Positions 4,649 through 36,862 are shown, counted from the first letter of the stretch. The stretch: DNA of 64,000 nt from Polyangiales bacterium (GCA_046351515.1 JAXLYJ010000005.1:120318-184317); one strand, 5' to 3'. Translations and numbers: made by a program. The notes: generated by a model from the letters alone, not told the origin.

Positions 4649-4726
4649 GCGCTCGCGGACAGCCGCCTCGTTGCTCGCCTGTGTAATGCGCCAGCGACGA
4701 TCGCCGGAGTACAGTCCGACGAACCG

Positions 4727-7863
<3,137 letters not shown>

Positions 7864-7867
<4 letters not shown>

Positions 7868-9294: not shown

Positions 9295-9408
9295 GCCAGT
9301 ATTCAAGTCACCGCTGTTTCGATGGGTGAATGCGCGTCCTCGCGCCGCGCCGTGCCCCGCGGGCCGTCGGGCGCTGCGCGGCGGGCGCGAGAGTTGGTAT
9401 GAAGAGCC

Positions 9409-10068
9409 ATGACCACTGAGCACTACAAGCTGTACAGCTACTGGCGGTCGAGCGCGTCGTGGCGCGTTCGATGGGCGCTCGCGCACAAGGGGATCGCGTT
9501 CGACAAGGTGATCGTCAACCTGCTGAAGAGCGAGCAGCGCGCGGACGAGCATCGCGGGCGCAATCCGATCGGGCACGTTCCTGCGCTCGAAGTGACGCCG
9601 GGGAGGTTTCTGGCCGAGAGCGTGGCGATCATCGAGTGGCTCGAAGAGACGCACCCCGAGCCGCGGCTGTACCCGACGGACCCGTGGGCGAAGGCGCGCG
9701 TGCGACAGGTGGTCGAGCTCGTCAACGCGGGCATTCAGCCGCTGCAGAACCTCGTGGTGCTCGACAAGGTCTCGAGCGACCCCGAGGCGAAGAAGGCCTG
9801 GGCACACGATTTCAACTTGCGTGGTATTTCAGCGCTCGAATCGCTGCTGAAGTCGATCGATCACGAGCTCGGCGAGGGGCGCTTCGCCGTGGGCGACGCG
9901 CTCAGCGCGGCGGACTTGTTCGTGGTGCCGCAGGTGTATTCGGCGCGCAGGTTCGGCGTGGACGTGGCGCCCTTCGCGCGGGTGCTGCGCGCAGAGGCGA
10001 GCGCCCTCGCGACGCCGCACGCCGAGGGCGCGAAGCCCGAGTCGCAGCCGGACGCTCCGAAGAGCTGA
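9409..10068 (+). CDS. maiA: maleylacetoacetate isomerase / zeta-class glutathione S-transferase
   Basis: 219 aa. N-terminal LYSYWRSSASWRVRWALAHKG is typical of MaiA/GSTZ. It has the length and layout of a GST fold. Confidence 0.75.
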   Translation: MTTEHYKLYSYWRSSASWRVRWALAHKGIAFDKVIVNLLKSEQRADEHRGRNPIGHVPALEVTPGRFLAESVAIIEWLEETHPEPRLYPTDPWAKARVRQVVELVNAGIQPLQNLVVLDKVSSDPEAKKAWAHDFNLRGISALESLLKSIDHELGEGRFAVGDALSAADLFVVPQVYSARRFGVDVAPFARVLRAEASALATPHAEGAKPESQPDAPKS

Positions 10069-12269: not shown

Positions 12270-12295
12270 GGTGAGTCCTCCGTCGATGAGTGGGT

Positions 12296-14203
12296 TTAGC
12301 GGGCGCGGAGCTTGCGCGCGTCGCCGATACGAATCGTGACCTTCTTCACGTCGAAGTACTCGGCGAGAGGAATGGTCCATTTGCGCGACGCGCCGGTGAT
12401 CGTCTTGAAACCCTGCGCGTCGATCGATCCTTGGGCCTCGATCCAGGCCACGAGCTTCTTTTCGAGCTCGAGCATGGACGCCGCGTCCGCGTAGAACTCG
12501 GGCGAAATCTTCACGATGTCCCCGCGCGCCACGAGGCGGTCGAGCGCCGGCGCGAGGGCCTTGGGCTCGACGCGCAGCGACTGCGCGACCTCGTCGACGC
12601 GCGGAGGCATCACGCCCGCGCTGCAAATCGCCTTGCGAACGGGCTCGAGGTGCGGGACGGCGTCGGGGTCCTTCGGCTTCCATCCGGCGCGGGCGTAGAC
12701 GTCTTGGTCGCGGCTCACCTTGCGATCGGCGACGAGCTTGGCGAGCAGGGCGTCCATCAGCGCGTCGTCCCCGAGGGCTTTGAGCGCGCTGCGCGTGAGC
12801 CCGCGCGAGGCGGGGTTGGCAGAGTGCTCGGCGGAGAGCGACTGAAGAATCTTCTGCGTCACCGGCGCCGCTGCGCTCGCGCTCACCCAGCGCTCTCGCG
12901 TGATCTGCACGAGCCCCGCGGTGGCCATCGCCGCCTCGTCGAGCGTCGCTCCGACGCGCGCCGAGAGCTGCTGGGGAGAGAGCCCTTTGAGCCCCGCGGC
13001 GTCGGACTCGGCGCGCAGTCGAGCGTCGCGATCGTCTGCGTTTTCAGCGACGGATTTCGCTCGCGCGAGCGCGGTGTCGCGCTTCTTCACGCGCTCGGCG
13101 ACCGGACGAATCACCACGCCGCCGCCGAGCGTCGAGCCGAAGCCCGCGAGCGAGGGCGGGCCGCGCAGGACGAAGCGCTCGTTGGGTCGAAGCGCGACGG
13201 CGCTCTCCGTGGTGATGCGCGCGATGGCCTTCGAGCCCGGCTCGAGCGACTCGCCTTCGAGCAGCGCGACCGCGCAGAGCGTGTGCGCGGCGCCGACGGC
13301 GAGCTCGAGCTTGCTGCGGCGTCCGAGCTCGTGACGCGTGCTCGCGAGCAGCGAGACCTCGGCGTCGAAGGCGTAGGTGAGCGCGACCTCTCCTTCGCGC
13401 ATGAGCCACGCGCCGCGCGGGACCTCGCCGCTCTCGATGCCGGCGATGTTGACCGCGACGCGCGTCCCCGCCGAGGCCTGTGTCACAGAATCGCCGTGAA
13501 TTTGCAGGGCGCGCACGCGCACCTCGCGCGCTTCGTCGTCGAGTCCCACCGGCGCGACCACGAGCGAGTCGCCCTCGCCAACGGCGCCGGAGACGAGCGT
13601 TCCGGTCACGACCGTGCCGAAGCCCTTGCGAACGAAGACGCGGTCGATCGGCAAGAGCGTCGGGCCGTCCGAGGCGCGCGGCGCGACCGCTGCGCGGGCG
13701 AGCGCTGCGCGAAGCTCGTCGAGTCCGCGGCCGGTGTGCGCGCTCACCGCGACGATCTCCGCGTTCTGCAAGAACGTCCCCGCCACGGTCTCGCGCACCT
13801 CTTCGATCGCGAGCTCGAGCACGTCGTCCGCGGCGAGGTCGGACTTGCTGAGCGCGATCACTCCCGCGCGAACGCCGACCAGCTCTGCCACCGCGAGGTG
13901 CTCTCGGGTCTGCGGCATCACGCCTTCGTTCGCCGCGACGACGAGCATGCAGAGGTCGAGGCCTCCGGCGCCGGCGATCATCGCGCGGATAAACCTCTCG
14001 TGGCCGGGCATGTCGACGATCGCGGCGCGTCGACCGCCGGGCAGCTCGAGGTGCGCGAAACCGAGCTCGATGGTGATTCCGCGGGATTTTTCTTCGGGCA
14101 AACGATCGGTGTCGACGCCGGTGAGCGCCTTCACGAGAGCGGTCTTGCCGTGATCGATGTGTCCTGCGACGCCGATCACGAGGTCCGAGGGACGAGCGGT
14201 CAT
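12296..14203 (-). CDS. selB: selenocysteine-specific translation elongation factor
   Basis: GTPase motifs [16 protein letters not shown] and SKSDL, followed by a long C-terminal winged-helix-like extension. About 635 aa from ATG 14203 (the track ORF begins at GTG 14233). Confidence 0.85.
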
Positions 14204-14224
14204 GTGCGTGTAGAGTATCTGCCC

Positions 14225-15958
14225 ATGGCACACCGATCGACGCAGTTCTGTCTCTGGATGGCTCCGTTGTTGGCGCTCGCGAGCGCCCGATGCTCACCGC
14301 CGCCGCCGTCGCCGGACGCTGAAGCGTCGGTGAGCGACGCGACCAGTGACATGAGCGCGCCGGACGGCGGCGAGCAGGACGGCTCGATGATCGCCGGTGA
14401 CGCTGGCGCAGACGCTTCTCCCGCGTGGCTCGAGCCGTGGGCGCCCGGGCCGCGAGCGCGTCCTCGACAGGGATTTCTCTGGGGAAGCGCGACGGCGGGC
14501 TATCAGATCGAGGGCCAGCTCGACAACACCGACTGGGCCATCTGGGAGTCGATGGGTCGCATCGTGAACAACGATCGGGCCAACGACGGGCCGCGCTCGT
14601 ACGAGCGATGGATGGACGACGTGAACGCGCTGCGCGAGAGCGGACAGACCGCGTATCGCTTCGGGATCGAGTGGGCGAGGCTGTTTCCGACGCGCGCGAG
14701 CTGGGAGGCGTGTCGCAACGCGACGGGCGACATGGCCGCGAAGGTCGCGACGTGCCGGATGCAAGCGAGCGCGACGGGCAAGGCGTACTACCACCAGCTC
14801 ATCGACGCGCTGCGCGCGAGCACGCCGAGGATCGTCCCGATGGTGACGCTCTATCACTGGACGATGCCGGACTACATCGCTGATCCCCGCATGGATTTTC
14901 GCACGCAGGGATGGATGAACATGCGGATGCGATCGGACATGGCGCTGTACGCCGCGGTCGTCGCGGCCGAGTACGGCGAGACGGTCGACTGGTACGTCAC
15001 GCTCAACGAGCCGATGGTGCACGTGCTCGCGGGCTACCTCGACGGGCGGTTTCCGCCTGGAAGAACGCTGGAGATCGACGGCGCGGTCACCGTGCTGACG
15101 AACATGGTCTACGCGCACGCGGCGATGTACGACGCGATCAAGCTGTTCGATCGCACGACCGCCGAGAGCACGGGGCCGATCAGCCCGACGCAGCCGTCGT
15201 ACGTCTCGATCGCGCATCACATTCGACGGATGTACGGCGCGAACCCCGCGAGCACGATGGACGCGCGCGCGGCGACGAAGGCCGACTGGCTCAATCACAA
15301 GCTCTTCTTCGAGGCGATCGTGCGCGGCAACCTCGATGCCAACGGCGACGGAACCGTGAGCGCCACCGAGCCCACCAACGACCCCGCGCTGCGCGGCCGC
15401 GTCGACTACCTCGGGATCAACTACTACGGGATGACCACGATCCGCGCGAACGCAGGGATTCCGCTGGTCGGAGGGCTGCCTGTGAACGAGGAGCTCGAGC
15501 GCGGGCTGCCCAAGACCGACTTCGGCTGGGACATCTATCCACGCGGCTTCGAAGAGGTGCTCGTCAACTACAGCCGCGAGTACATGCTGCCGATCGCGGT
15601 GACCGAGAACGGGATCGCCGACGCGCGCGACGTGAATCGTCCGCGGTTCATGCTCGAGCACTTCGCGGCGATGTTCTCTGCGATGCAGCGAGGAGCGAAC
15701 GTCGTCGGCTACTTCCACTGGTCGACGGTGGACAACTTCGAGTGGGTGGGAGGCTACTGCCCGCAGTTCGGCTTGTACTCGGTCGATCGAACGAACCCGA
15801 TGCGACCGCGAACGGCGCGTCCGAGCGCGATGCTCTATCGCGACGTGATTCGCTCGGGCGAAGTGACGGACGCGCAGCTCACGATGGCCGCGGCGTACCA
15901 GCATCCTTCGCGCTTCTGCCCGAGCACTGTCATGGCCACCGCCGACGCAGGAATGTAG
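14225..15958 (+). CDS. glycoside hydrolase family 1 beta-glucosidase with a signal peptide and low-complexity linker
   Basis: FLWGSATAGYQIEG, the acid/base motif TLNEP and the nucleophile motif VTENG. The N-terminus MAHRSTQFCLWMAPLLALASARC looks like a signal. Only the last 578 codons of track ORF 12290..15958 are real. Confidence 0.85.
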   Translation: MAHRSTQFCLWMAPLLALASARCSPPPPSPDAEASVSDATSDMSAPDGGEQDGSMIAGDAGADASPAWLEPWAPGPRARPRQGFLWGSATAGYQIEGQLDNTDWAIWESMGRIVNNDRANDGPRSYERWMDDVNALRESGQTAYRFGIEWARLFPTRASWEACRNATGDMAAKVATCRMQASATGKAYYHQLIDALRASTPRIVPMVTLYHWTMPDYIADPRMDFRTQGWMNMRMRSDMALYAAVVAAEYGETVDWYVTLNEPMVHVLAGYLDGRFPPGRTLEIDGAVTVLTNMVYAHAAMYDAIKLFDRTTAESTGPISPTQPSYVSIAHHIRRMYGANPASTMDARAATKADWLNHKLFFEAIVRGNLDANGDGTVSATEPTNDPALRGRVDYLGINYYGMTTIRANAGIPLVGGLPVNEELERGLPKTDFGWDIYPRGFEEVLVNYSREYMLPIAVTENGIADARDVNRPRFMLEHFAAMFSAMQRGANVVGYFHWSTVDNFEWVGGYCPQFGLYSVDRTNPMRPRTARPSAMLYRDVIRSGEVTDAQLTMAAAYQHPSRFCPSTVMATADAGM

Positions 15959-15964
15959 CGCGCG

Positions 15965-16603
15965 ATGGACGAGCGCCGACCGTACGCGCCCGCTGAGCAG
16001 ACGGCGGCACCAACATTCAACGCGACGGCGAGCGGGCTCGCGACGGTCGATTCGGCGCGGGCTGCGAGCGACGTTCCAAAGGGCTTCTCGGCGAGCGAGC
16101 GTCGCGATGCGGCGGGGTACTCGCTCGAGTCGCAGCGAACGACGCGCTCGTTTGCTCTCTCGATGCTGTGGCCGTCGATCTTGCTGCTCTGGGTCATCGG
16201 GGGCGCGGTGGCTTCGCTGCGCACCCTGCTCGACGGCGAATGGGGCGGCGCGCTGGCGCTGATGTTGGTGCTGGTGGCGCCCGTCGTTCCGTTTGTGCAT
16301 CGGTTGGTGCGACGGTCGTTCGACGCAGCGCGCATCACGTTGAGCGCCGAAGGTGTGCGCGCGGATGGGGGTTTGTTGACCATCACCGACGTGGGCGTGA
16401 CGAGCGTCGCGCTGGGAGACATCTTCGGCTTCGCTGTGCAAAACGAGGGCAGCTCGAAGACCCGCGTGATGGTGCTCACGCGCGACGGCGAGGCGAAGCT
16501 CTTGCGCTGCAACGTCCTCGACCGCGCGCACGCGATCTTCGTCGTGACTCGCTTGAACCGCGAGCTGTCCGCGATGCGCGCGGCAGGCCACTACCGAGGG
16601 TGA
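15965..16603 (+). CDS. hypothetical two-TM membrane protein (paralogue 1)
   Basis: High GC3. Starts 6 nt after the GH1 stop. Two hydrophobic helices are followed by a ~100-aa domain ending VVTRLNRELSAM. Confidence 0.6.
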   Translation: MDERRPYAPAEQTAAPTFNATASGLATVDSARAASDVPKGFSASERRDAAGYSLESQRTTRSFALSMLWPSILLLWVIGGAVASLRTLLDGEWGGALALMLVLVAPVVPFVHRLVRRSFDAARITLSAEGVRADGGLLTITDVGVTSVALGDIFGFAVQNEGSSKTRVMVLTRDGEAKLLRCNVLDRAHAIFVVTRLNRELSAMRAAGHYRG

Positions 16604-16607
16604 TTCG

Positions 16608-17243
16608 ATGAGCGACGATCCGTTCGATCCTTCGGTGCTCACTGCTGCGCAGGACACCGCGTGGGCGGCGCCCGCAGCGGACGCGTCGATGGTCGTGCGC
16701 GACGTCGAGCAGACCATCGTGATGGAGGGCAGCAGCGAGCCTCCCTCGACGCTGAAGATGCAGGAGGCCACTCCGCTCGGAAAATTCCAGGCGATCATCG
16801 GTGCATCATCGCCCCGCGCGCGGTCGCTGTTCGCGGCGTTGGCCACGGTCGCGGCGCTCGGGCTCGCGCTGGCGATCGCGATGGACGGGCCGCGCGGCGA
16901 GCCGGTGTGCGCGGTGATGTCGCTCGTCGCGATGGCGTTGTTTCCGCTGCGCGCCGCGTGGTTGTGGGCGCTCTCGAAGCACGAGCTCGAGCTCAGCGCG
17001 ACGCGCTTCTCCGCGGTCTCGCGCGGCGTCTTGGGCCTGGTTCGCCACGAGTTCGACGCGCGCACGATCCACGGCTTCGGCTATCAGCGACACCCCACAC
17101 GCCCGTGGCGCTATCAGCTCGTCGTGGTGCTGCGCTCGGGATGGACCGCGGCGATCGACATCGCGTGCTCGCGTCGAGATGAAGTGCGGTTCGTCGCGCG
17201 TCGGCTCAACGCCGAGCTCGCGCTGCTGCAAGCGAAGAAGTGA
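16608..17243 (+). CDS. hypothetical two-TM membrane protein (paralogue 2)
   Basis: Starts 4 nt after the previous stop. Same architecture; the C-terminal motif FVARRLNAELALL parallels paralogue 1. Confidence 0.6.
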   Translation: MSDDPFDPSVLTAAQDTAWAAPAADASMVVRDVEQTIVMEGSSEPPSTLKMQEATPLGKFQAIIGASSPRARSLFAALATVAALGLALAIAMDGPRGEPVCAVMSLVAMALFPLRAAWLWALSKHELELSATRFSAVSRGVLGLVRHEFDARTIHGFGYQRHPTRPWRYQLVVVLRSGWTAAIDIACSRRDEVRFVARRLNAELALLQAKK

Positions 17244-17282: not shown

Positions 17283-18440
17283 CTACCGCTCGGCCTTCTT
17301 GACGAACGCGCACACGTCCGAGGCGAGCACCTGCGGCTCGCCGTCTTCGTCGCGCACGCTGGTGACCGCGCGCGCGCAGGCAACGCAGAAGCGCGCTTCG
17401 CCGGCGGTGGGAGAGGCGACGGGCTGCAGCTCGTTCCACAGCATCGGGCAGAGGGTGAGGCGCTTGCCGGCGATGACGACGCTGCGCGTGCACGCCGCGG
17501 GATGCAGCGGAATCCACGTGGGCTCGAGCGGTCCGAGCAGCGCGTGCACCACTTTGTCGATCGCTCGATCGCGCACCGATCGCTCGCGCAGCGCCGCGCG
17601 CGCCGGCTCGAGAAGCGCGAGCAACGCCAGCACGTTCGAGTCGATGGGCCAGCGCTGCAGCCAACGCAGCAACGGCCCGGTGAGCGCGTCGGCCTCGGCG
17701 CTCTGGCGAAACTCGTCGTCGTCGATCGCGCGCTGCGCGAGCTGCGCCGCGGCGAGCGGGTGCTCGTCGAGCTGCGTTGCCCGAGAAAATGCTGGCAAAT
17801 CATCTCCACCAGCCGGCACTCCCGCGAGCGCGAGCGCCTCGTCGAGCGCGAGCACCGACCGAAACACCCCCGCTGCGGCGCGATCGAGCACCGCGTCGAT
17901 CGCTGGATCGCGCGGGAGCGAGGCGCTCATCGTGCGCGCGAGCGAGGCGAACTCCGCTGCCGCGACCGACGGCTCTTGCGGAAGCGACCCGACCGCGGTC
18001 ACGGGAAACGCGACGAACACCCTTCCGAGCGCGTCCACCTCGAGCGCGCTGTGAACGACCGCGTGTTCGACGGCGCGCGCCGCGAACCGCAGCGCCGAGA
18101 GCGCTTGTCGCTGATCGCGCCACACGCCCGAGGCGAGCGCGACCTCGATCGAGATCGACGCGACGAACTCGCTCACGACCGCCGGACACGGCTTGTTCGC
18201 GCTCAAGCAGTACGCCGTGTGAATCCCGTGCAGCGGGACGGTGCCCTCGACCGCCGAGCGCGCACGCACGCGCTCGATCACGTCCGTGCAGTCCACGTCG
18301 TGCTCGAACCTGTGCACCCAAACCAGCCGCTGCGCGACCTCGTCTCGGGCGAGCCAGCGCGACGCTGAAGGGCCACGCCACTGCGGGGCCACCATGGTGT
18401 ACGCGCCCCAACGGTGCGGGTCGTCCTTGCGGTTGGGCAT
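17283..18440 (-). CDS. hypothetical protein
   Basis: 385-aa ORF with an ATG start and good GC3. C-terminal Cys pairs (CPMLW..FCVACA..C). No family recognised. Confidence 0.55.
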   Translation of the reverse strand: MPNRKDDPHRWGAYTMVAPQWRGPSASRWLARDEVAQRLVWVHRFEHDVDCTDVIERVRARSAVEGTVPLHGIHTAYCLSANKPCPAVVSEFVASISIEVALASGVWRDQRQALSALRFAARAVEHAVVHSALEVDALGRVFVAFPVTAVGSLPQEPSVAAAEFASLARTMSASLPRDPAIDAVLDRAAAGVFRSVLALDEALALAGVPAGGDDLPAFSRATQLDEHPLAAAQLAQRAIDDDEFRQSAEADALTGPLLRWLQRWPIDSNVLALLALLEPARAALRERSVRDRAIDKVVHALLGPLEPTWIPLHPAACTRSVVIAGKRLTLCPMLWNELQPVASPTAGEARFCVACARAVTSVRDEDGEPQVLASDVCAFVKKAER

Positions 18441-18545
18441 GATCTCGAACCCCCGGCAGCATACGCGCTTCTGTGCAAAGTATGAAAAACACGCAAGCTT
18501 CGTTGGCGCCGCGGGGGGCGAGCGGTGCTACACCCTCGGGTCTCG

Positions 18546-19250
18546 ATGAGCGATTTCTACGAAGACGAGGTCGAGCTGCGTCGGTTCGACAGCGCGTTCG
18601 ATGCTGAGTTGGCCTTGGAGTTCGTGCGCGAACACGGCGTGCGCGCGAGGCTCAAGGGCTCTGGAACGACGCACATCCTCGATCGGTTCACGACGGTGGT
18701 GGACCTGCGGCTCATGGTTCCTGCCGGTGAGCGCGAGGCGGGGATGGCCGCGCTCGAAGCGATGGAGCTCGATGAAGACTCCGCCGACGAAGCCGCGCAG
18801 AAGCGGCTCGACGACGAGGCTCGCGGCGGAGCAGCCTACCGTGAACGCCGTGCCAACACGCAGGACGACGCGCCTTCTCCCAAGGATTTTCGCTACCGAA
18901 GCGGCGCGGTGGTGGGCGTCGCGTGGTTCGGCGGAGCGCATTTGAACGCCCGGCAGTCCGTGCTCGGCTGGTTCTTGTTCGCCGTCATGTGGACCTTGCT
19001 GCTCGCCGCTGTGACCACCGGAAAGCCCTGGCTCATCGTGACCTTCACGATGCTCTGGATCTACGACATCGCGCACGGAATTCTGGCGGTGGATCTGCAC
19101 AACGCCGGCAAGCGCGTCGAGCCCAAGATCCAGCTGTTGCACGGCCTGGCGGTGCTGCTCGTCGCCTCGCTCGCGTCGATGGCGCTCGTCGCTGTGCGTC
19201 CTCCACGCAGGCCCGCAGAAGACGCGATGGCTCCGGCGCCGGTCGGGTGA
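18546..19250 (+). CDS. hypothetical membrane protein (soluble N-terminal domain plus TM2-like C-terminal helices)
   Basis: ATG at 18546 (MSDFYEDEVELRRFDS..). The C-terminal part GVAWFGGAHLNARQSVLGWFLFAV.. has 3-4 hydrophobic helices. It ends 53 nt before the radical SAM gene on the same strand. Confidence 0.55.
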   Translation: MSDFYEDEVELRRFDSAFDAELALEFVREHGVRARLKGSGTTHILDRFTTVVDLRLMVPAGEREAGMAALEAMELDEDSADEAAQKRLDDEARGGAAYRERRANTQDDAPSPKDFRYRSGAVVGVAWFGGAHLNARQSVLGWFLFAVMWTLLLAAVTTGKPWLIVTFTMLWIYDIAHGILAVDLHNAGKRVEPKIQLLHGLAVLLVASLASMALVAVRPPRRPAEDAMAPAPVG

Positions 19251-19303: not shown

Positions 19304-20407
19304 ATGGCAACAGCACGGCCCAAGCGATATGCGCTCGCGATCGAACTCACGAGCTACTGCAATCAGAAGTGCGGCTACTGCTACAACGACTTTCGCGAGG
19401 ACGGGGGCAAGTCCGTCGGCGCGCTTCCGACGGAGCAATTGCTCGCGGTCGTGGACAAAGCGCTGACCGAGGTCGAGTTCGATCACGTCACGCTCACCGG
19501 CGGAGAGCCCTTCGCGCGCTCGGACATCTTCGAGGTCATGGACCTCGTGAAGAAGCACGGCGTGGGTCTGCAGATCATTTCGAACGGCGGGATGATCACC
19601 GAGGCGATCGCCAAGCGCCTCGCGCCGTACAAGCCGAGCTTCGTGCAGGTCACGCTCGACGGAGCGAGCAAAGAGCAGCACGAAGCGCACGTGGGCGAGG
19701 GGCACTACGACAAGACCCTGCGCGGCATCGCGCTGCTGAAAATGCACGGCGTCACGGTGTGCGGCTGCATCGTGATCTCTCGAAAGAACGCGAAGGACGT
19801 CGGCGAGATCCTCGATCAGTTTCGGCGGCTCGGGATCAAGAGCGTCGCGCTCTCGCGGTTTTCTCCGTCGGGGTACGCCGCGGCCAACGTCGCTGAGCTG
19901 CTCCCGTCTCGCTCGGAGATGATCACCGCGCTCGAGCAGGCCGAGGCGCGCGGCCGAGACAACAAGATGGACCTGCAAGTGACGATGCCGATGCCGCCGT
20001 GCGTGATCGAGCACAAGGACTATCCGCACGTCCGCTTCGGCGGCTGCCCGATCGGGACCGAGATGCAGGAGTTTGCGCTCGGGCCGAAGGGCGAGCTTCG
20101 CAACTGCACGCTGCACACGGACGTGATCGGCGACGGACAGAGCGAGTCGTTCGCCGCGCTCGTCGAGAGCCCCGCGGTGATGCAGTACCGCGACGTGACG
20201 CCAGAGTTCTGCGAGCCGTGCCCGCACAAGCGATCGTGCGTCGGCGGCTGCGGCGCCTCTGGGGTCGCGGTGCTCGGAAAGCAGAACCCGCTCGATCCCT
20301 TCGTCGCGCAGCACGTGGACGACGCGTTTCGCGCGCAGCTCAAAGCGGCGCGGCGGGGCGAATCGCCGGTGATTCCGGCCAATCGTCTGCGGCGCGCCGC
20401 GGTCTGA
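19304..20407 (+). CDS. radical SAM/SPASM-domain maturase (anSME-like architecture, no RRE)
   Basis: CNQKCGYC (CX3CX2C) at residues ~19-26 and a TGGEP SAM-binding motif. C-terminal auxiliary-cluster region: C-X14-G-X4-C followed by CEPCPHKRSCVGGC (CX2CX5CX3C). The track start at 19295 is TTG; ATG 19304 is preferred. Confidence 0.9.
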   Translation: MATARPKRYALAIELTSYCNQKCGYCYNDFREDGGKSVGALPTEQLLAVVDKALTEVEFDHVTLTGGEPFARSDIFEVMDLVKKHGVGLQIISNGGMITEAIAKRLAPYKPSFVQVTLDGASKEQHEAHVGEGHYDKTLRGIALLKMHGVTVCGCIVISRKNAKDVGEILDQFRRLGIKSVALSRFSPSGYAAANVAELLPSRSEMITALEQAEARGRDNKMDLQVTMPMPPCVIEHKDYPHVRFGGCPIGTEMQEFALGPKGELRNCTLHTDVIGDGQSESFAALVESPAVMQYRDVTPEFCEPCPHKRSCVGGCGASGVAVLGKQNPLDPFVAQHVDDAFRAQLKAARRGESPVIPANRLRRAAV

Positions 20408-20450
20408 GCGAGCGGATCGAGAGCGGACAACGCGAAGGGAGCAGCGGGCG

Positions 20451-20975
20451 ATGAGCGAAGACGAGAGCAAACGCGAGCCGAGCGACGAGGGCGAGCGCGA
20501 CGAGGACAGCGAGGATCGCTCGATGATCTTCGCGCGACGCAAGATGCTCGTCTCCGCGGCGCTCGCGGGCGTCGCGATGAGCACGGCGGGGTGCGATCAG
20601 CTCAAGCGCGCGATCGGGATCGGGGCCGACCCGCAGCCGTGTCTCTCTCCACCGGAGCCGCCTCCGCAGGTGTGCCTCGCGTATCGGCCGACCGAGCCGC
20701 AGGCGTGTCTGAGCGTCCCCATTCAGCCGCAGGTGTGCCTGTCGCCGCGCGTCGAAGAGCCGCCTCCCGACGCGGGCGGCGCAGCGGTCGATCCGCTCTC
20801 GGGGATGCGCGACCCCAACGCGATGCCGTGCCTCGCCGCGATGGACCCGCGTCGCGACCCGCCGCGACCACGGGTGTGTTTGTCGCGCGTGCCCTCGCGC
20901 CCTCGCGCCTGTCTCGGAGCGACGCAGAGCGACAACATGTTCAAGGACACCAACGAGTCCGACGACGAGTCGTGA
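20451..20975 (+). CDS. Cys-repeat protein with a Tat-like/lipobox signal; putative substrate of the flanking radical SAM enzymes
   Basis: 174 aa. Acidic N-terminus (residues 1-24), then FARRKMLVSAALAGVAMSTAGC (RR, h-region, lipobox Cys48). Seven P-x-x-C-L-[SAG] motifs follow (Cys64, 75, 86, 96, 127, 143, 154), then an acidic tail QSDNMFKDTNESDDES. GAAGGGAG lies 9 nt upstream of ATG 20451. Alternative start ATG 20523 (M25). Confidence 0.7.
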   Translation: MSEDESKREPSDEGERDEDSEDRSMIFARRKMLVSAALAGVAMSTAGCDQLKRAIGIGADPQPCLSPPEPPPQVCLAYRPTEPQACLSVPIQPQVCLSPRVEEPPPDAGGAAVDPLSGMRDPNAMPCLAAMDPRRDPPRPRVCLSRVPSRPRACLGATQSDNMFKDTNESDDES

Positions 20976-21034
20976 CCGCGCCGCGCGCTCGGCGCTCTGC
21001 CGCTCGCGCGCTCGATGCACTACGCTACCGGTCG

Positions 21035-23281
21035 ATGACCCGTCCCGTGCGTGTGCTGCTCTTGTGGCCAGGAACCGACGGCGCCGCCGCCGGCAACTTC
21101 GGCGTCCCGCAGCTCGTGTTGCTCGCGACCTACGCGCGCTCGAAGACTGGCGCCAAGATCGACATTCGCGACATCGAGACCGAGCGCGCGTTCGGCGCCG
21201 TCTCGCTGCCTGCGCTGCTCGCGGGCGATCACGGCAGCGGCTACGACGTCATCGCGCTCGGAGTGTATTCGAGCTTCGATTACTTGAAGTGCGTCGCGCT
21301 CGCCGAAGTGGCGCGGCAGCTCTACCCCGAAGCGGTGATTGTTGCGGGCGGCTATCACGCGAGCGCTCGACCGGGCGACATCGTGTACGACGGCTCTCCG
21401 TTCGACGTGTGCATCGTGGGCGAGGGCGAGAAGCCCTTGGTGACCGTGATCGAATCGGTCGCGGGCGGCGCGCCGTTGCGTGGAGAAATCCTCGGCCCCG
21501 AGCCGGTCGACGTGCTCGACGATCTTCCGCCGAGCGACTGGAGCTTTCTCGCTCGCTACCGGTCCATCGCGCGCAAGGTCAACTCGCAAGCGCAGGTGTA
21601 CTTCTCGCGCGGCTGCCCCTTCGACTGCGCGTTCTGCATGGAGCGCGCGAAGCGCGAGGTCTCGTGGCGCGCGCTGTCCATCGAGCGCGCGGTGCAAGAG
21701 ATCCGCTCGCTGCACGAGTTTCTCGATCTGCGAACGTGGACCGTCTACATCGCCGACGCGCTGTTCGGGATGAAGGTCTCGTGGCGCAGGCAGTTTCTCG
21801 AAGCGCTCGCGCGCGAGGCGATTCCGGTCGACAAGTTCTGGCTGCTCATCCGCGTCGACCTCATCGACGAGGTGGATCTCTCGCTGTTTCACCAGGCCAA
21901 CTGCGGGCTCGGATTCGGGCTCGAGTCCGGCGACCCTGCGCACCTCGCGACCATTCGCAAAGCCGGCCGCCTCGACGAGTACCTCGATCGCATGCGCAAC
22001 GTGTCCGCGTGGGCGAGGGAGCACCAGGTCCCTTGGGGAGCGAACGTGATCGTCGGGCACCCGGGCGAGACGCCCTCGTCGATCGAGCGCAGCGCCGCGT
22101 ATTTGAGCGAGCTGTTTCTCGACCCGAAGGGCGTGACGGGATTTCTCTCGGTCGATCCGTTTCGGCTGTATCCCGGCTCGCCGATCGACTCCGAGCGCGG
22201 ACAGTGGGAGGCACGCTTCGGCTGCGTGTTTCATCGGCCGGACTGGTGGCACGACGGCGATCAAGAGTTTCTCGCCGAGTGGGTCGATCCCTCGCGCGAG
22301 CTGACGTACCTCGAGCGCGCGCGCCTGCAGCACCAACACTTCGGTCCCATCCTCTCGCGCATCGAGGACAACTTCGTCTACCGCGGAAAAGCCCGCGAGT
22401 ACTTCGTTCGCGCCATCCGCGATCAGGTCCGCCAGGACCGCGCGGGCATGCGCATGCACTACCTCGATCGCTACTACGCGTGGCACCGCTACCTCGGTCG
22501 AAGCAGCAAGGGGGACGCGCATCGCCGCGCGGATCGCCACCTCGCGCAGACCGCGCGCGAGCTGCGAGAGCGGCACCGCGCCTCGCTCTTGGAGTACGCG
22601 TCTCGACCGGGCGCCGAGCCATCGCGCGCCGCCGTCGTCGTGAGCGCGGTGCTCGACGCGCGCCGCGAGCTCTTCGTTCCGCTCGATCGCGTGATCGAGA
22701 GCGTGAAGGACGAGCCCGTCGCGCTCGACGCGAGCGGCGAGAGCACGGTGAGCGCGATGCACGCGTACGCTAGGACCTTCGCGCTCGCGGACATCACCGA
22801 GGGCGATCGTGTCTTGGATCTCGGCTCGGGCACCGGCTACGGCTGCGCTGTCCTCCGATCGCTCGTCGGCGAGGACGGAGCCGTGTGGGGCGTCGAGGTG
22901 GACCCCGCGCTCGCCGCGAAAGCGCAGAAAAACTGCGGCGAATTCGCCAACGTCGCCGTGCGCGCGGGCGACGCGATCGACCCCGCGCACTGGGGCGTCG
23001 AGCCCTCGCAGCTCACCAAAGTGTGCGGCGGATTCGCGCTCGAAGACATCCCCGAGGCGTGGTCGGTCCTGCCCGAGGGCTGCGTGATCGTCGCGCCGAT
23101 CGGCGGGTCGGACGAGCAGCGATTGGTGCGCGCGACCAAGCGTGGGCAGCGGTGGTTGCGCGAGCCGTTCGACGCCGTGGTGTACGTGCGTCGACGAACC
23201 TCGGACGAAGTGCAGCCCGCGGTCGCCGCGGCCACGCGCGTCGAGCAGAGCGCGCGCAAGCACCTGCCGATCGCGACGTGA
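21035..23281 (+). CDS. fusion protein: B12-binding domain, radical SAM core and protein-L-isoaspartate O-methyltransferase-like domain
   Basis: 748 aa from ATG 21035. The N-terminal VRVLLLWPG..VIALGVYSS..VIVAGGYHAS resembles a B12-binding Rossmann domain. CPFDCAFC lies at residues 194-201. The C-terminal ~190 aa (RRELFVP..STVSAMHAYARTFALADITEGDRVLDLGSGTGYGCAVL..VWGVEVDP..VIVAPIG) match the PCMT/PIMT pattern. Confidence 0.85.
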   Translation: MTRPVRVLLLWPGTDGAAAGNFGVPQLVLLATYARSKTGAKIDIRDIETERAFGAVSLPALLAGDHGSGYDVIALGVYSSFDYLKCVALAEVARQLYPEAVIVAGGYHASARPGDIVYDGSPFDVCIVGEGEKPLVTVIESVAGGAPLRGEILGPEPVDVLDDLPPSDWSFLARYRSIARKVNSQAQVYFSRGCPFDCAFCMERAKREVSWRALSIERAVQEIRSLHEFLDLRTWTVYIADALFGMKVSWRRQFLEALAREAIPVDKFWLLIRVDLIDEVDLSLFHQANCGLGFGLESGDPAHLATIRKAGRLDEYLDRMRNVSAWAREHQVPWGANVIVGHPGETPSSIERSAAYLSELFLDPKGVTGFLSVDPFRLYPGSPIDSERGQWEARFGCVFHRPDWWHDGDQEFLAEWVDPSRELTYLERARLQHQHFGPILSRIEDNFVYRGKAREYFVRAIRDQVRQDRAGMRMHYLDRYYAWHRYLGRSSKGDAHRRADRHLAQTARELRERHRASLLEYASRPGAEPSRAAVVVSAVLDARRELFVPLDRVIESVKDEPVALDASGESTVSAMHAYARTFALADITEGDRVLDLGSGTGYGCAVLRSLVGEDGAVWGVEVDPALAAKAQKNCGEFANVAVRAGDAIDPAHWGVEPSQLTKVCGGFALEDIPEAWSVLPEGCVIVAPIGGSDEQRLVRATKRGQRWLREPFDAVVYVRRRTSDEVQPAVAAATRVEQSARKHLPIAT

Positions 23282-23293
23282 AAGGGCGCTGGC

Positions 23294-24751
23294 GTGTCGC
23301 AGGACGAGTTCTCGCTGAGTGCGCTGCTCGATGACGAGACCGATGGCGCGCGCGACGGCCTCGTCTTCGAGGGCGAGCGGCTTCGATGGAGCGAGGTCGC
23401 GACGCGCGCCCTGCGGCTCGGAGCCAAGATCGAGCGCGCCAACGGCGGTCGCGCGCGGCGAGTGGCGCTACGCGCGAGCAATCGACTCGAGACCGCGCTC
23501 GCGCTGTACGCGATGTTCGACCGGGGGATCACCGTCGTTCCGCTGCACCCGCGGCTGACGGACGCCGAGGCCGCGGCGCTCGCCGACGACGCCGAGTGCG
23601 CGCTCCGGCTCGACGACGCCTCGCTCGACGCGCTCATTCGAAGCGACGAAGCGCCGCTCGACCCTCGATGGACACACGAAATCAAGATCGACCCCGAGGC
23701 GCCGCTCGCCGTGCTGTACACCTCGGGCACCACCGGTCGGCCCAAGGGCGCGGTGCTCTCGCGCCGCGCGTTCGTCGCCAGCGCCCGCGCGAGCGAGGTG
23801 AACCTGCCGTGGAGCGCGCGGGACCGTTGGCTCTTGTGCCTCCCGCTCTGCCACGTCGGCGGCCTCTCGGTGCTCACGCGGTGCTTGTTCGCGAGGCAAG
23901 GCGTGGTGCTGCAGCGAAAGTTCGACGAGCGCGCGGTGCTCGACGCGATCGAGCGCGAGGGGGTGACGATCGCGAGCTTCGTTCCGACGATGATGCATCG
24001 GCTGCTCGAGGCGGACTCGCGCGGCGCGCTCGCGGCGTTGCGCGCGGCGCTCTTGGGCGGGGCCGCGACGTCGACCGCGCTGCTGCGCGCGTGCGCCGAG
24101 CGCTCGATCCACGCGCGAACGACGTACGGGCTCACCGAAGCGTGCTCGCAAGTGAGCACGCAGGGCGAGCGCGATTGGAGCACGGTCGAGCTCGGCAGCG
24201 GCGCACCGCTCGCGGCGACAGAGCTCTGCGCGCTGCGCGAAGACGGGACTCGGTGCGAGCACGACGAGGTCGGCGCGCTCGTCCTGCGCGGACCGACGCT
24301 CTTCTCGGGCTATCTGCACCACGAGCCTCGGGCGCGCGAGAGCTGGTTTTCGACCGGCGATTTCGGGTTCTTCGACGAGCGAGGACGCCTGCACGTCGTG
24401 GCGCGCAGGACCGACCTGATCGTGACGGGCGGCGAAAACGTCTACCCCCTCGAGGTCGAGCGCGCGCTCGACGGGATCGAAGGCGTGCGCGCCTCACTCG
24501 TGTTCGGCGTCGATGATCCGCGCTGGGGGCAGGTCGTGGCGTGCGCCCTGGTGATCGATGAGCGATTCTGTCCCGACCGTTTCGCGGTGAAATGCGCGGA
24601 GATGCTCGCGCCCCACAAGCGACCGCGGCTGTTCGCGCCGTGCGAGGCGCTGCCGCTGACCGCGGCGAACAAGCCCGATCGGCGCGCGGCGCGAGAGCGG
24701 TTTTCCTCGCAGCTCGAGCCGGTCCGCTATCGCGCATCCCCGAACCGCTGA
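23294..24751 (+). CDS. AMP-dependent synthetase/ligase (o-succinylbenzoate-CoA ligase MenE-like)
   Basis: YTSGTTGRPKGAV, TTYGLTEACSQV, FSTGDFG and GGENVYPLEVE. About 485 aa. GTG start 12 nt after the preceding stop. Confidence 0.8.
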   Translation: MSQDEFSLSALLDDETDGARDGLVFEGERLRWSEVATRALRLGAKIERANGGRARRVALRASNRLETALALYAMFDRGITVVPLHPRLTDAEAAALADDAECALRLDDASLDALIRSDEAPLDPRWTHEIKIDPEAPLAVLYTSGTTGRPKGAVLSRRAFVASARASEVNLPWSARDRWLLCLPLCHVGGLSVLTRCLFARQGVVLQRKFDERAVLDAIEREGVTIASFVPTMMHRLLEADSRGALAALRAALLGGAATSTALLRACAERSIHARTTYGLTEACSQVSTQGERDWSTVELGSGAPLAATELCALREDGTRCEHDEVGALVLRGPTLFSGYLHHEPRARESWFSTGDFGFFDERGRLHVVARRTDLIVTGGENVYPLEVERALDGIEGVRASLVFGVDDPRWGQVVACALVIDERFCPDRFAVKCAEMLAPHKRPRLFAPCEALPLTAANKPDRRAARERFSSQLEPVRYRASPNR

Positions 24752-24945: not shown

Positions 24946-25149
24946 GCTTCGTCGCTCGATTTGCAGGGCGAATCGTCGGCGTTGCTTTCACTCTGGCACG
25001 CGCGGGCGAAGCGTCAAGTCGAGAGGGAAGCATTCTGCTCTCTCGATGGGTTACAACGGTGCGCGCGTTCGGTCGTCGTCCGCTGCGAGGGCAGCGATGA
25101 TGGGCGAGCGCGGATCGCAGCGCCTCTCAGACTCTCAAGGAATCTCCTC

Positions 25150-26253
25150 GTGGATCGTCGTCGTATCGCCATCACTCTCGCTCGCGTGCTCGCGCTCGTC
25201 GGGCTCGTGGTCTCCGCGGCGCTCATCATCGAGTACGCGATGCCCGAGCCCACGCTCTGCGGTCCCGGCGGCGGGTGCACCGCCGTCCGCGCGTGCTGGG
25301 AGCAGCGCGTGAAGTGGTTTTCTCTTCCGTGGTTCGGGCTCGTCTCGTTCGGCGCCGCGCTGAGCGCGCTGCTGCTCGTGCCCAAAGACAAGGCGAGCAA
25401 GCTCTTGCCTGCGCTGGGGGCGCTCTCTGCGCTCGGCGGCGCGACGCTGATCGCGCTGCAGCTCGGGATGTGCCACTCGTGGTGCAAGTTCTGTATGGTG
25501 ACGGATTCGAGCGCGATTTTGCTGGGCGCGGCGCTCTTGTTCGGCCGCGACGCGTACGAGCCCGCCTCGCCGACGCAGCGGTGGCTCTTCGGCGGCGGCG
25601 CGGTGCTGACCGCGTGCGTGGCGATGTTGAGCGCGCCCCCTGCGAGCACGGGCGGCGGCGGGACGGGCGGCGATTCGTCGCGCGGACCGCGCGCTCAGTA
25701 CGTCGCGGTCTTGCCGGGGCCGGTCGCGCGCGAGCAGCGCGACGGCGTGGTGACCATCGTCGAGTTCGCTGACTTCGAGTGTCCGTTTTGTCGCAGGCAA
25801 CACGCGGTGCTCTCGTCGGTGATCGAGCGCTATCACGGACGCGTGCGGCTCGTGCGCAAGCAGCTCCCGTTGACGGGGATTCACCCGCACGCCGAAGACG
25901 CGGCGAAGGCCGCGCTGTGCGCAGAGGAGCTCGGTCGCGGCGAAGCGATGGCCGATCGACTCTTTCGCGCGGAGGCAGAGCAGCTCACGGCCGACGGGAC
26001 GACGGCGATCGCGCGCGAGCTCGGCCTGGACGAACGCGCGTTTCGCGAGTGCGTCGCCAACGATCGAACGCGCAGTCACATCGCGAGCGACCGCAACGCC
26101 GCGCACGAGTGCGGCGTGCAGGGGCTGCCGACGATGTTCATCGGGCACGAGCGGTTCGACGGCCTCGTGGACGAAGAGGCGCTTCGCGAGAGCATCGAGC
26201 ACGCGCTGCACCCCGATGCAGGCGCGGGCGTGAGCAGCGCGGACGGGGGCTGA
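25150..26253 (+). CDS. VKOR-domain membrane protein fused to a DsbA-like thioredoxin domain
   Basis: GTG at 25150 is preceded by AAGGAA. The VKOR cysteines CGPGGGC and CKFC sit within four or five TM helices. The C-terminal periplasmic domain has FECPFC plus LPTMFIG. Confidence 0.85.
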   Translation: MDRRRIAITLARVLALVGLVVSAALIIEYAMPEPTLCGPGGGCTAVRACWEQRVKWFSLPWFGLVSFGAALSALLLVPKDKASKLLPALGALSALGGATLIALQLGMCHSWCKFCMVTDSSAILLGAALLFGRDAYEPASPTQRWLFGGGAVLTACVAMLSAPPASTGGGGTGGDSSRGPRAQYVAVLPGPVAREQRDGVVTIVEFADFECPFCRRQHAVLSSVIERYHGRVRLVRKQLPLTGIHPHAEDAAKAALCAEELGRGEAMADRLFRAEAEQLTADGTTAIARELGLDERAFRECVANDRTRSHIASDRNAAHECGVQGLPTMFIGHERFDGLVDEEALRESIEHALHPDAGAGVSSADGG

Positions 26254-28360: not shown

Positions 28361-29875
28361 GTGAGCGACAAGAGCATTGCAGAGCGCGCGAGGCGAGGCG
28401 TCGCGGTCATCACCTTCGCAAAAGCCTGGTTTTTGCTGACTGGATTCGCGCAGCCCGTCTTGCTCACGCGGGCGCTCGGCCGCGAGAACTACGGCGTATA
28501 CGGAGCGGTTTTGTCCGCGGTCTCGATCCTCAACAACGTGGTGGTAGCGGGGTCGATCCAGGCGATGTCCAAGAGCGTGACGAGCTACGGGACGGCGTCG
28601 ATCCGTCGCGGGCTCGCGCTGCACGCGCTGCTCGGGCTGGTGCTCGCGGGGGGATTCGCGGCGCTCGCCGGCCCGATCGGCGCCGATCTTCTGCGCGATC
28701 CAGGGCTGCCCCCGCTGCTGCGCATCGCCTCGATCGTGACGGGGATGTACTGCGTGTACGCCGCGCTCGTCGGCTCGCTGAACGGAACGCAGCGCTTCGT
28801 CGCCCAAGCCTCGCTCGACGTCTTGTTCGCCACGCTGCGCACGGGGCTCATCGTCGGCCTCGCGTTCGTGGGAATGGGCGTCCGCGGGGCGCTCATGGGC
28901 TTCGCTGCCGCGAGCGTCGCGATCACCCTCGTGGCGAGCGCGGTCGTCCTTCGGTCACCCAAGAGCGAGAGCGAGCGCGACGCTCCGTTGGGGCTCGCGT
29001 TTGCCAGAGAATATGCAGGTTTTTTCGCGCCCGTCCTGGTCTATCAGCTCGCGCTCAACATGGTCCTTCAGGCGGACGTGCTCGTGATGCAAGCGGTGCT
29101 CGCGCGACAAGCGGGCGCGACGCTCGAGGCGGTCAAGGGCCTGGTGGGCGTGTACAAGAGCGTGCAGAACTTCGCGTTCTTGCCGTACCAGCTGTTGATC
29201 GCAGTGACGTTCGTGCTGTTTCCCGTCGTGTCCAAGGCCGCTGCGGAGGGCGACGTCGAGACCACTCGCTCGATGCTGCGCGGGGCGCTGCGGTTCGCGT
29301 TCGTCGTGCTCGGCATGATGCTCTCGGTGATCGCCGGCGCGCCGCACGCGGTCTTGCGCATCGCCTATCGCCCCGAGTTCGCGGTCGGGGCGGGCGCGCT
29401 GCGGTGGCTCTCGCTCGGGCAGGGCTCGTTTACGTTGGCGGTGATCGGTCTCACCGTGGTGCTCGCGTCCAAGCGCGTCGCTGCGGCGACGATGCTCATG
29501 CTCGCGATGCTCGCCTTCGTCTTCGTCGGCGATGTGATCGCGCTCTCGGTCGTGGGCTTCGGCGAGCGAGCGCTCAGCGCGGCGGCGATCGGCACCGCGC
29601 TCGGCTCGACCGCGGGCATGCTCGGCGTCGCGATCTTTGTCCTGCGCATCTACGGCGCGATCGTCCCGTGGAAGACCGCGATGCGCGCATCGATCGCCGC
29701 GTCCGTCGCGGGCCTCGTGGGCGCGCTAGCGCCGGTGCACTCGAAGGTGGCCGCGCTCGGAGTGTCCGTGGTGATCGCGACGGTCTTCGCGCTCGTGTTG
29801 CTCGCCAGCGGCGAGGTCAGCGCTGAAGAGCGCGCGAAGCTGCTCGCGCGCGTGCGGCGCCCTCGCGCTCAGTGA
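28361..29875 (+). CDS. MOP-superfamily polysaccharide/oligosaccharide flippase (Wzx/MurJ-like)
   Basis: About 504 aa with 12-14 predicted hydrophobic helices. The N-terminal motif AERARRGVAVITFAKAWFLLTGF is typical of polysaccharide biosynthesis proteins. GTG 28361 is preferred over TTG 28334. Confidence 0.7.
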   Translation: MSDKSIAERARRGVAVITFAKAWFLLTGFAQPVLLTRALGRENYGVYGAVLSAVSILNNVVVAGSIQAMSKSVTSYGTASIRRGLALHALLGLVLAGGFAALAGPIGADLLRDPGLPPLLRIASIVTGMYCVYAALVGSLNGTQRFVAQASLDVLFATLRTGLIVGLAFVGMGVRGALMGFAAASVAITLVASAVVLRSPKSESERDAPLGLAFAREYAGFFAPVLVYQLALNMVLQADVLVMQAVLARQAGATLEAVKGLVGVYKSVQNFAFLPYQLLIAVTFVLFPVVSKAAAEGDVETTRSMLRGALRFAFVVLGMMLSVIAGAPHAVLRIAYRPEFAVGAGALRWLSLGQGSFTLAVIGLTVVLASKRVAAATMLMLAMLAFVFVGDVIALSVVGFGERALSAAAIGTALGSTAGMLGVAIFVLRIYGAIVPWKTAMRASIAASVAGLVGALAPVHSKVAALGVSVVIATVFALVLLASGEVSAEERAKLLARVRRPRAQ

Positions 29876-33456: not shown

Positions 33457-33504
33457 CGGCGGGCTTCACACTGTGAATCCTCCGCGCAAATCGCGCCACA
33501 AGGA

Positions 33505-36754: not shown

Positions 36755-36862
36755 CGAGCGCGGGGCGAGGGGGCGCGGCGGCACGACTGCATCCTGCGCA
36801 GCAACACCCGACCAGGCAAGCTAGCGACGGACATTGACTGTCACTCAGCCAGGCGCAGCCGC

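Follow-up and report, generated by a model that had tools for sequence, protein, structure and literature searches.

What is the function of a bacterial locus in which two radical S-adenosylmethionine (SAM) enzymes are encoded on either side of a small protein whose cysteines are almost all followed by leucine? The locus lies within 64,000 nucleotides of DNA from a Polyangiales bacterium (GCA_046351515.1, JAXLYJ010000005.1:120318-184317), the whole of which is referred to here as the window. It encodes a radical SAM enzyme with a SPASM-type cysteine set (the SPASM enzyme), a Cys-Leu repeat protein and a fusion of B12-binding, radical SAM and protein isoaspartyl methyltransferase (PIMT)-like domains. 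A sequence-only reading of the window had described four co-directional genes with gaps of 43, 59 and 12 nt and a membrane-protein gene 53 nt upstream; the open reading frames (ORFs) at 19304-24751 and 18525-19250 bore out both statements. Its interpretation of the locus as a maturation system acting on the cysteine-repeat protein is supported by the analysis described below: the SPASM enzyme and the fusion, with the repeat protein as their putative substrate, probably constitute a protein-maturation system. We hold any specific chemistry at the Cys-Leu sites with much less confidence.

The repeat protein contains eight cysteines. One of them, C48, lies in a lipobox-like TAGC, and the other seven (residues 64, 75, 86, 96, 127, 143 and 154, with codons starting at 20640, 20673, 20706, 20736, 20829, 20877 and 20910) each directly precede leucine. 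Of the seven P-x-x-C-L-[SAG] motifs originally counted, six are strict; the seventh, AMPCLA, is a variant with proline only at position -1. Seven or more Cys-Leu dipeptides were obtained in none of 200,000 shuffles of the protein, and its motif density was unique among the 513 six-frame ORFs of the window. At the DNA level, tandem repetition of the repeat region was confined to short, imperfect repeats of 17-26 nt at the motif codons, indicating that the repeats are maintained at the protein level. A hypothetical protein from a Polyangiales metagenome-assembled genome (MAG) is identical (100%) to the repeat protein, while orthologues in the same gene position are 46-79% identical and keep the N-terminal sequence MSEDE[ST]KR. 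The closest of these (P0002, at 6001-6459 of loci L088/L089; 152 residues, 79% identical) has five Cys-Leu motifs compared with seven in the 174 residues of the window protein, showing that repeat number changes among close relatives. Long spurious ORFs are plentiful in high-GC genomes, as they are among the ORFs of this window, and a reader might suspect that the small ORF is a chance product of GC-rich DNA and its motif a by-product of composition. We give this explanation virtually no credence, as it is refuted by the coding-type G+C content at third codon positions (GC3; 0.85 for this gene), a Shine-Dalgarno-like sequence ahead of the start codon, the shuffling result, the orthologues and the size of the family to which the protein belongs.

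Whether the repeat protein has conserved homologues was a test that the sequence-only reading had set for itself, and the outcome was in its favour: a profile search of 1.84 billion representative proteins (E<=0.001) returned at least 509 family clusters at 50% identity. In the 145 best representatives, 661 of the 677 cysteines that follow the leader precede leucine, and there are two to nine such sites per protein, with a single protein having only one. Aligned on the cysteine (100%), the repeat unit has proline at -3 (93%), any residue at -2, proline, valine or alanine at -1 (98%), leucine at +1 (98%) and then a variable residue followed by [VPI][AP]PP; the variable residue at +2 is serine, lysine, glutamate or aspartate, not proline. 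Freely varying spacers, rich in proline, glutamate, lysine and aspartate, separate the units. Thus, the Pro(-3)-Cys-Leu part of the original motif holds across the family, but the residue after leucine does not, and the family motif is better written P-x-[PVA]-C-L. Such extreme invariance of a motif within a chain that is otherwise free in length and sequence is the pattern that a modification site would be expected to leave. Three members (P0009, P0306 and P0334) end in a sub-threshold match to the AgmX/PglI (TonB_C-like) domain (30-35 bits, cut-off 40); the gene for P0009 lies at 8001-8621 of locus L086. Because some members continue into this domain, the sequences suggest that the repeat region can serve as the tether of a larger exported envelope protein, and a folded extension of this kind is more in keeping with export of a whole protein than with secretion of a small peptide.

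Nearly all members begin with the same type of leader, 141 of the 145 best representatives having an Arg-Arg (RR) leader and a following cysteine. The leader consensus is D(-7) 76%, R(-6) 71%, x, A, I(-3) 89%, L(-2) 84%, A, RR 98%, x, x, [FL], [VI], A, [SA], A, L, A, G. The distance from the arginine pair to the cysteine has a median of 17 residues (range 14-24), the residue before the cysteine is glycine, alanine or serine in 95%, and the region N-terminal of the leader is acidic (median net charge -4). The window protein follows this plan, with an acidic N-terminus, the sequence I-F-A-R-R-K-M-L-V, a mildly hydrophobic stretch and the lipobox-like T-A-G-C48. This is the form of a twin-arginine lipoprotein signal, from which we infer use of the twin-arginine translocation (Tat) pathway and lipidation. 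The signal proposed by the sequence-only reading is therefore family-wide as regards its RR and lipobox-like form, but its assignment to either export process is soft. The segment before the arginine pair is conserved beyond what would be expected of such signals; therefore the stretch D-R-x-A-I-L-A-R-R-x-x-F-[VI]-A is probably also a recognition handle for the enzymes.

The SPASM enzyme has the cysteine architecture that had been claimed for it. An N-terminal CX3CX2C motif (C19x3C23x2C26) and a C-terminal SPASM-type set (C248-x14-G263-x4-C268 and C303x2C306x5C312x3C316) were invariant in an alignment of 23 homologues with 62-87% identity, as were all seven cysteines of the SPASM region, the set expected to hold two auxiliary clusters (C233, C248, C268, C303, C306, C312 and C316). 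Homologues number in the hundreds, the best 120 being 62-91% identical. Pfam detected Radical_SAM PF04055 (89.5 bits, cut-off 29.5) together with Fer4_12. The Pfam SPASM model was not reported at E<0.01; the C-terminal cysteine region was covered by full-length alignments to the PqqE, ACGX-system, GeoRSP and DynA SPASM models and to the PqqE structure. PqqE (6c8v) was the best sequence match among solved structures, extending over the full length at E=2e-16, whereas the match to an anSME structure was restricted to the core (35 bits). Scores against NCBIfam equivalogs (June 2026 release) fell far under their cut-offs, the best being ScmE (106, cut-off 400); the others included the mycofactocin maturase (97, cut-off 265), PqqE TIGR02109 (96.1, cut-off 381), StsB (91, cut-off 625), the ACGX system TIGR04340 (82.4, cut-off 400; aligned nearly full-length, over residues 9-323) and AlbA (68, cut-off 850). 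In an AlphaFold model (mean predicted local distance difference test score, pLDDT, 78.5; barrel above 90), the nearest solved folds were anSME (anSMEcpe, template-modelling (TM) score 0.67, identity 19-21%), then SkfB, and SuiB. The predicted fold thus agrees with the anSME-like architecture proposed earlier. The reported lack of an N-terminal RRE/PqqD-like extension was also confirmed, since the first barrel strand starts at residue 7 and is followed from residue 19 by the radical SAM motif (RRE denotes the recognition element of RiPPs, peptides that are synthesised ribosomally and modified post-translationally).

The three domains assigned to the fusion were each detected above cut-off (PF02310, 34.2 bits against 32.1; PF04055, 50.6 against 29.5; PF01135, 79.8 against 20.3). 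The same architecture was found in 926 homologues, none of them specifically named, of which the 120 listed are 59-100% identical; C194x3C198x2C201 and D-L-G-x-G-x-G were invariant in 16 homologues. The layout is that of class B enzymes, an N-terminal B12-binding Rossmann domain being followed by a radical SAM core. In the AlphaFold model (pLDDT 84.7, predicted TM score 0.79), a Foldseek search showed that the first ~530 residues resemble TokK, CysS, TsrM, AprD4, MgmA and OxsB (E 1e-14 to 1e-17). The best sequence match among cobalamin radical SAM structures was 9ccb, identified as the methyl-coenzyme M reductase glutamine methylase MgmA, which we take, also from its name, to be a protein-modifying C-methylase. 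NCBIfam matches of this half, all below cut-off, included a ladderane lipid protein, HpnR and BchE. The last ~200 residues superpose on PIMTs (TM 0.82 at 2.7 A for 2yxe), and alignment with 2yxe and 3lbf showed that the domain keeps T-[IV]-S-[AQ] (here TVSAMH), the SAM motif VLDLGSGTGYG and the C-terminal VIVAPIGG. T-[IV]-S-[AQ] is the substrate- or peptide-binding motif of PIMTs. Identity as a housekeeping PIMT was rejected, TIGR00080 scoring 84.5 against 159 and NF001453 67 against 188. The two activities were found on one chain in none of the matched NCBIfam families or solved structures, and we know of no described case in which a cobalamin radical SAM enzyme is fused to a PIMT-like domain.

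Whether the two radical SAM genes are syntenic with a Cys-Leu repeat gene was examined in a scan of one genome per species, which returned 80 loci, 46 of them with full flanks (at least 7 kb on both sides). In most genomes the result was favourable. In 66 of the 69 loci with enough sequence, the SPASM gene is followed immediately, on the same strand, by the fusion gene, and a search combining the leader with the motif identified 65 repeat-protein genes in 47 loci. A repeat gene was located within 8 kb in 32 of the 46 full-flank loci. Of the repeat genes, 29 sat between the enzyme genes, 24 closely followed the fusion gene in convergent orientation and 7 stood just upstream; 13 loci carried two to four copies. 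In L001 and in the Victivallales MAG locus L083, the start and stop of the repeat gene overlap those of the flanking enzyme genes. Searching from the substrate side gave the same picture, with orthologues P0002 and P0005 occupying the same slot. The loci come almost entirely from Polyangia (Polyangiaceae, Nannocystaceae, Sandaracinaceae and Labilithrix), and the enzymes are kept at about 60% protein identity across the whole class, which consists of soil and marine bacteria with large genomes; the other sources are one Victivallales MAG and one MAG labelled Planctomycetota. Paraliomyxa miuraensis SMH-27-4 (L024) and Nannocystaceae ST9 (L064) are cultured carriers. The Victivallales locus (L083, 7836-12249) encodes the SPASM enzyme, a repeat protein with nine motifs and a more canonical signal (S-R-R-D-L-L), the fusion and part of an unnamed protein, p299, that recurs beside the cassette, with 41% enzyme identity. 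The presence of the cassette outside Myxococcota points to horizontal transfer or, for the MAG labelled Planctomycetota (L039), mis-binning. An all-against-all clustering of neighbouring ORFs was badly contaminated by antisense shadow ORFs in this GC-rich sequence, and it was used only as a lead.

Several observations weigh against maturation of the repeat protein by these enzymes. A repeat gene was lacking within 8 kb in 14 of the 46 full-flank loci, including the close relatives L006 and L007, and a relaxed motif search for a hidden copy in the 33 loci without one yielded only L035, where the gene is cut by the contig end. Conversely, the distant family members P0008 and P0009 are orphans, having no radical SAM gene within 8 kb. 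Because repeat genes also occur far from radical SAM genes, the linkage, very strong as it is, is not obligatory; it resembles the arrangement in which several substrate genes share one enzyme. Neither enzyme showed an RRE-type domain for leader binding. In the leader, the spacing is often RR-x-x-F and not the Tat consensus RR-x-F-L, and position -2 of the lipobox is often acidic (glutamate in 16% of members, aspartate in some), which is what makes the Tat and lipoprotein assignments soft. Finally, the repeat unit has no conserved aspartate, asparagine or other carboxylate, leaving the PIMT-like domain without an obvious target.

How might such a system operate? The substrate role of the repeat protein, the order of steps and every chemical detail of Cys-Leu modification are what we infer from the sequences, along the following lines. 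The repeat protein would be made in the cytoplasm with a long leader serving as export signal and as a probable handle for enzyme recognition. No signal peptide was found on the SPASM enzyme or the fusion, so both are cytoplasmic; their location, the export signal of the presumed substrate and the short invariant site repeated along an otherwise unconstrained chain together suggest that modification would precede export. At this stage the SPASM enzyme would abstract hydrogen at each P-x-P-C-L site or beside it. The SPASM enzymes known to work on cysteine-containing motifs either form sulfur-to-carbon bonds, as for sactipeptides, ranthipeptides and QhpC, or oxidise cysteine to formylglycine. 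Because the units lack a sulfatase motif and leucine at +1 is near-invariant, a local thioether or another reaction centred on cysteine and leucine is the best guess, and the most likely product would be a sulfur-to-carbon (thioether-type) bond or some other cysteine-centred oxidation. The B12/radical SAM half of the fusion would then carry out a cobalamin-dependent C-methylation, and its PIMT-like half a carboxyl O-methylation. The modified, proline-rich rod would be exported, for which the Tat route would suit a cross-linked chain, and would subsequently be lipidated at the lipobox-like cysteine and anchored in the envelope.

A bolder version of this model would make the process a near-universal housekeeping modification in Polyangia and a few bacteria of the Planctomycetes-Verrucomicrobia-Chlamydiae group. 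In it, a chemically new structure centred on Cys-Leu would be installed at every P-x-P-C-L site of an envelope-anchored, proline-rich family; a thioether within the motif, together with C-methylation and a methyl ester, may be one possibility. The fusion would be the first cobalamin radical SAM/PIMT-like enzyme, and its substrates a new class of modified structural or redox-active envelope protein, not a secreted peptide. We regard this extended proposal as rather unlikely to be right in full.

The same genes could be read as a multi-core RiPP cluster, in which the P-x-P-C-L units are core peptides that are cut out and secreted as many small copies and the leader serves the enzymes only. Short repeated cores, variable spacers, several precursor genes per locus and variation in repeat number are typical of such clusters, and two proteins encoded near the cassette in many clades, a metallo-beta-lactamase (MBL)-fold hydrolase and p299 with its invariant histidines and glutamates, could be processing enzymes. 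However, neither a peptidase nor an ABC exporter nor an immunity gene is conserved with the cassette, and conserved cleavage sites are absent around the units. The RR/lipobox form of the leader in almost all representatives and the folded C-terminal domain of some members also speak against excised peptides, and we judge the class-wide conservation of the enzymes to look like that of a housekeeping function and not of a sporadic natural-product cluster. On balance we consider a multi-core RiPP cluster improbable. A similarly small likelihood attaches to the idea that both radical SAM enzymes act on a lipid, a quinone, a cofactor or another non-protein substrate, the Cys-Leu lipoprotein being a co-expressed carrier, receptor or sensor. 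The lipid and tetrapyrrole enzymes among the below-cut-off matches of the B12/radical SAM half would agree with it, as would the MenE-like ligase, often accompanied by a quinone-dependent VKOR-DsbA protein, that follows the cassette in the clade of the window, and the roughly 30% of loci without a nearby repeat gene. The ligase and VKOR genes are nevertheless absent from most clades, and this idea does not readily accommodate a repeat gene wedged between the enzyme genes with overlapping stop and start codons, which is a classic arrangement for peptide substrates. Nor does it explain why the PIMT-like domain keeps T-V-S-A, a peptide-binding motif, and a near-invariant motif repeated two to nine times in an unconstrained chain is hard to account for in a binding partner.

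A further alternative changes only the chemistry of the preferred explanation, making the SPASM enzyme an anSME-type maturase that converts each cysteine to the aldehyde formylglycine. The nearest solved fold, that of anSMEcpe, shares the architecture without an RRE, and anSME also acts on cysteines of exported proteins before their export. Whether the SPASM enzyme groups with sulfatase-associated anSMEs was another test posed by the sequence-only reading, and it came out in favour of that reading: the best full-length match is PqqE, while similarity to anSME, at 19-21% identity, is confined to the radical SAM core. In addition, the 25 best NCBIfam families included no anSME model. The Cys-Leu units lack the sulfatase motif C-x-P-x-R, having leucine at +1, no proline at +2 and no arginine at +4, and no sulfatase-like gene was seen among the conserved neighbour clusters, which were grouped by sequence and are only partly annotated. 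Formylglycine formation by an anSME-type enzyme therefore seems very unlikely. Maturation of the repeat protein in the cytoplasm, at its Cys-Leu sites, remains the explanation that we favour.

Comparison with described systems places the cassette among radical SAM peptide and protein maturation systems; it is one in which the substrate family, the motif and the enzyme fusion are all new. The claim that no named family covers it stood, in that no Pfam or NCBIfam model matches the repeat protein at all and none names either enzyme above cut-off. A full-text literature search found no description of this system, and source records carry only the names 'radical SAM protein' and 'hypothetical protein'. 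The bioinformatically defined, Haft-type ACGX (TIGR04340) and His-Xaa-Ser (HxsA/B/C, TIGR03977) systems are alike in having a SPASM enzyme beside a small protein that repeats a motif of three to five residues; ACGX repeats contain cysteine, as here, and Hxs uses two radical SAM enzymes, as here. They differ in score (82 against 400 and 73.5 against 268, respectively), and the P-x-P-C-L motif, the RR/lipobox signal and the B12/radical SAM/PIMT second enzyme set the present cassette apart. The ACGX and Hxs systems are not themselves known to have been characterised. anSME and its sulfatases, in which cysteine or serine becomes formylglycine, offer an RRE-less SPASM enzyme, the nearest solved fold and a single enzyme for several scattered substrate genes. 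anSME modifies a cysteine within a short motif of a protein bound for export, before export takes place; by contrast, identity to anSME is low, the motif differs and the sites considered here are repeated two to nine times in a disordered, proline-rich chain.

Further parallels concern individual components. PqqE, which acts with PqqA, is the best full-length match among solved structures, and QhpD is a SPASM enzyme that installs cysteine thioethers in a small periplasmic subunit (QhpC) before export. The PqqE model scores 96 against 381, no pqq or qhp genes lie nearby, and the presumed substrate is a repeat protein and not a peptide or subunit with one site. Sactipeptide and ranthipeptide maturases (AlbA, SkfB, CteB and PapB) are SPASM/twitch enzymes that form bonds from cysteine sulfur to carbon, PapB acting on repeated cysteine-containing motifs, and SkfB is the second-nearest fold. 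These maturases carry an N-terminal RRE, unlike the SPASM enzyme of the window, for which the AlbA and StsB models stay far below threshold (68/850 and 91/625). In domain content and fold, the B12/radical SAM half of the fusion matches class B methylases (MgmA, PoyC and the bottromycin methylases), and its C-terminal half matches the PIMT-like RiPP methyltransferases of the FxLD and ATP-grasp systems. Unlike in those PIMT-like systems, the repeat units here have no conserved aspartate for the usual aspartimide chemistry. With a very simple recognition motif, hundreds of substrate members and an unprecedented three-domain enzyme, the cassette offers a tractable entry to new cysteine radical SAM chemistry, and it raises the question of why envelope lipoproteins would be decorated in the cytoplasm before export. 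Should the modification be a compact cross-link at a five-residue tag, use in peptide engineering would be possible.

The features of the locus are collected in Table 1. The window DNA is 69% G+C, and all five genes from the membrane-protein gene to the ligase gene show the high GC3 typical of coding sequence. Between these genes no terminator-like site was found on the + strand, one weak match lying within the membrane gene, and scans of the window for tRNAs and Rfam families were empty.

Table 1. Positions of the genes and sequence features at the Cys-Leu cassette of the window
Feature	Position	Strand	Remarks
Membrane protein, 241 aa	18525-19250	+	53-nt gap to SPASM gene; clade-specific neighbour
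Radical SAM/SPASM enzyme, 367 aa	19304-20407	+	Followed by 43 nt; core component
Shine-Dalgarno-like GAAGGGAG	20434-20441	+	9 nt before the repeat-protein ATG (20451); read from the sequence
Cys-Leu repeat protein, 174 aa, presumed substrate	20451-20975	+	Followed by 59 nt; core component
Leader/signal region of repeat protein, aa 1-48	20451-20594	+	
Repeat region, seven Cys-Leu sites	20625-20921	+	
B12-binding/radical SAM/PIMT-like fusion, 748 aa	21035-23281	+	Followed by 12 nt; core component
PIMT-like carboxyl methyltransferase domain of fusion, aa 534-718	22634-23188	+	
MenE-like adenylate-forming ligase, 485 aa	23294-24751	+	PF00501, PF13193; accessory or passenger, outside the core
VKOR-DsbA fusion (periplasmic thiol oxidation)	24961-26253	+	PF07884, PF13462, PF01323; 209 nt past ligase

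The ligase, the membrane-protein gene and the VKOR-DsbA gene are specific to the clade of the window and do not belong to the core of the cassette. A ligase gene directly follows the fusion gene only in L006-L008 and L088-L091 and is absent from the other ~70 loci, and homologues of the 241-residue membrane protein, for which no Pfam or NCBIfam family was found, are confined, upstream of the SPASM gene, to L005-L008 and L088-L091. VKOR-DsbA is present in L006, L007, L088 and L089, with an FG-GAP gene in its place in L090. That the gene at 23294 encodes an adenylate-forming ligase, as first read, was upheld by its two Pfam domains. True MenE identity was rejected (TIGR01923, 292 against a cut-off of 330; NF002966, 316 against 556), and no other men gene was detected among the scanned ORFs of the window. 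The ligase, which resembles a menaquinone-pathway enzyme, and VKOR-DsbA, a quinone-linked periplasmic disulfide oxidase, may form an independent functional unit.

Other clades have neighbours of their own. The p299 protein, of about 290 residues, is encoded in ~36 loci, convergent after the fusion gene (for example at 11968-12867 (-) of L001 and 13929-14903 (-) of L004), and directly downstream of the repeat genes in the loci inspected (e.g. L024 and L026). It has invariant residues at His13, His212-Glu213, Glu236 and Trp259 and is without a relative in Pfam, NCBIfam or profile searches of the PDB. The MBL-fold protein (444 residues; Lactamase_B_2/3) is encoded in ~27 loci, mainly of Nannocystaceae, divergently and directly upstream of the SPASM gene (6591-7925 (-) in L004). 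Neither protein was found in the window by tblastn or, for p299, by a hidden Markov model of 27 members run against the six-frame ORFs, and profile comparison with the 385-residue and 241-residue neighbours in the window gave no match.

Elsewhere in the window, a gene for SelB, the selenocysteine-specific elongation factor, lies 5 kb upstream of the cassette at 12296-14293 (-) and is also a neighbour in L088 and L089; the organism therefore makes selenoproteins. Selenocysteine variants of the repeat motif were considered and rejected, there being 8 P-x-P-TGA-L matches compared with 351 P-x-P-Cys-L matches and none of them in a repeat-gene context. The window also encodes a hybrid histidine kinase that carries two receiver-domain stretches and a histidine phosphotransfer (Hpt) domain (4649-7867 (+)), a glutathione S-transferase (9403-10068 (+)) and an AddAB-like pair in which a UvrD-type helicase gene stands beside that of a PD-(D/E)XK nuclease (29869-33465 (-) and 33602-36820 (-)). 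Upstream of the membrane-protein gene are two adjacent ORFs of ~212 residues (15965-16603 (+) and 16608-17243 (+)), whose C-termini are weakly similar (E=0.002), and an ORF of 385 residues (17283-18440 (-)), all three without family assignment. The same position in L090 holds genes with corresponding lengths of 213, 213 and 384 residues.

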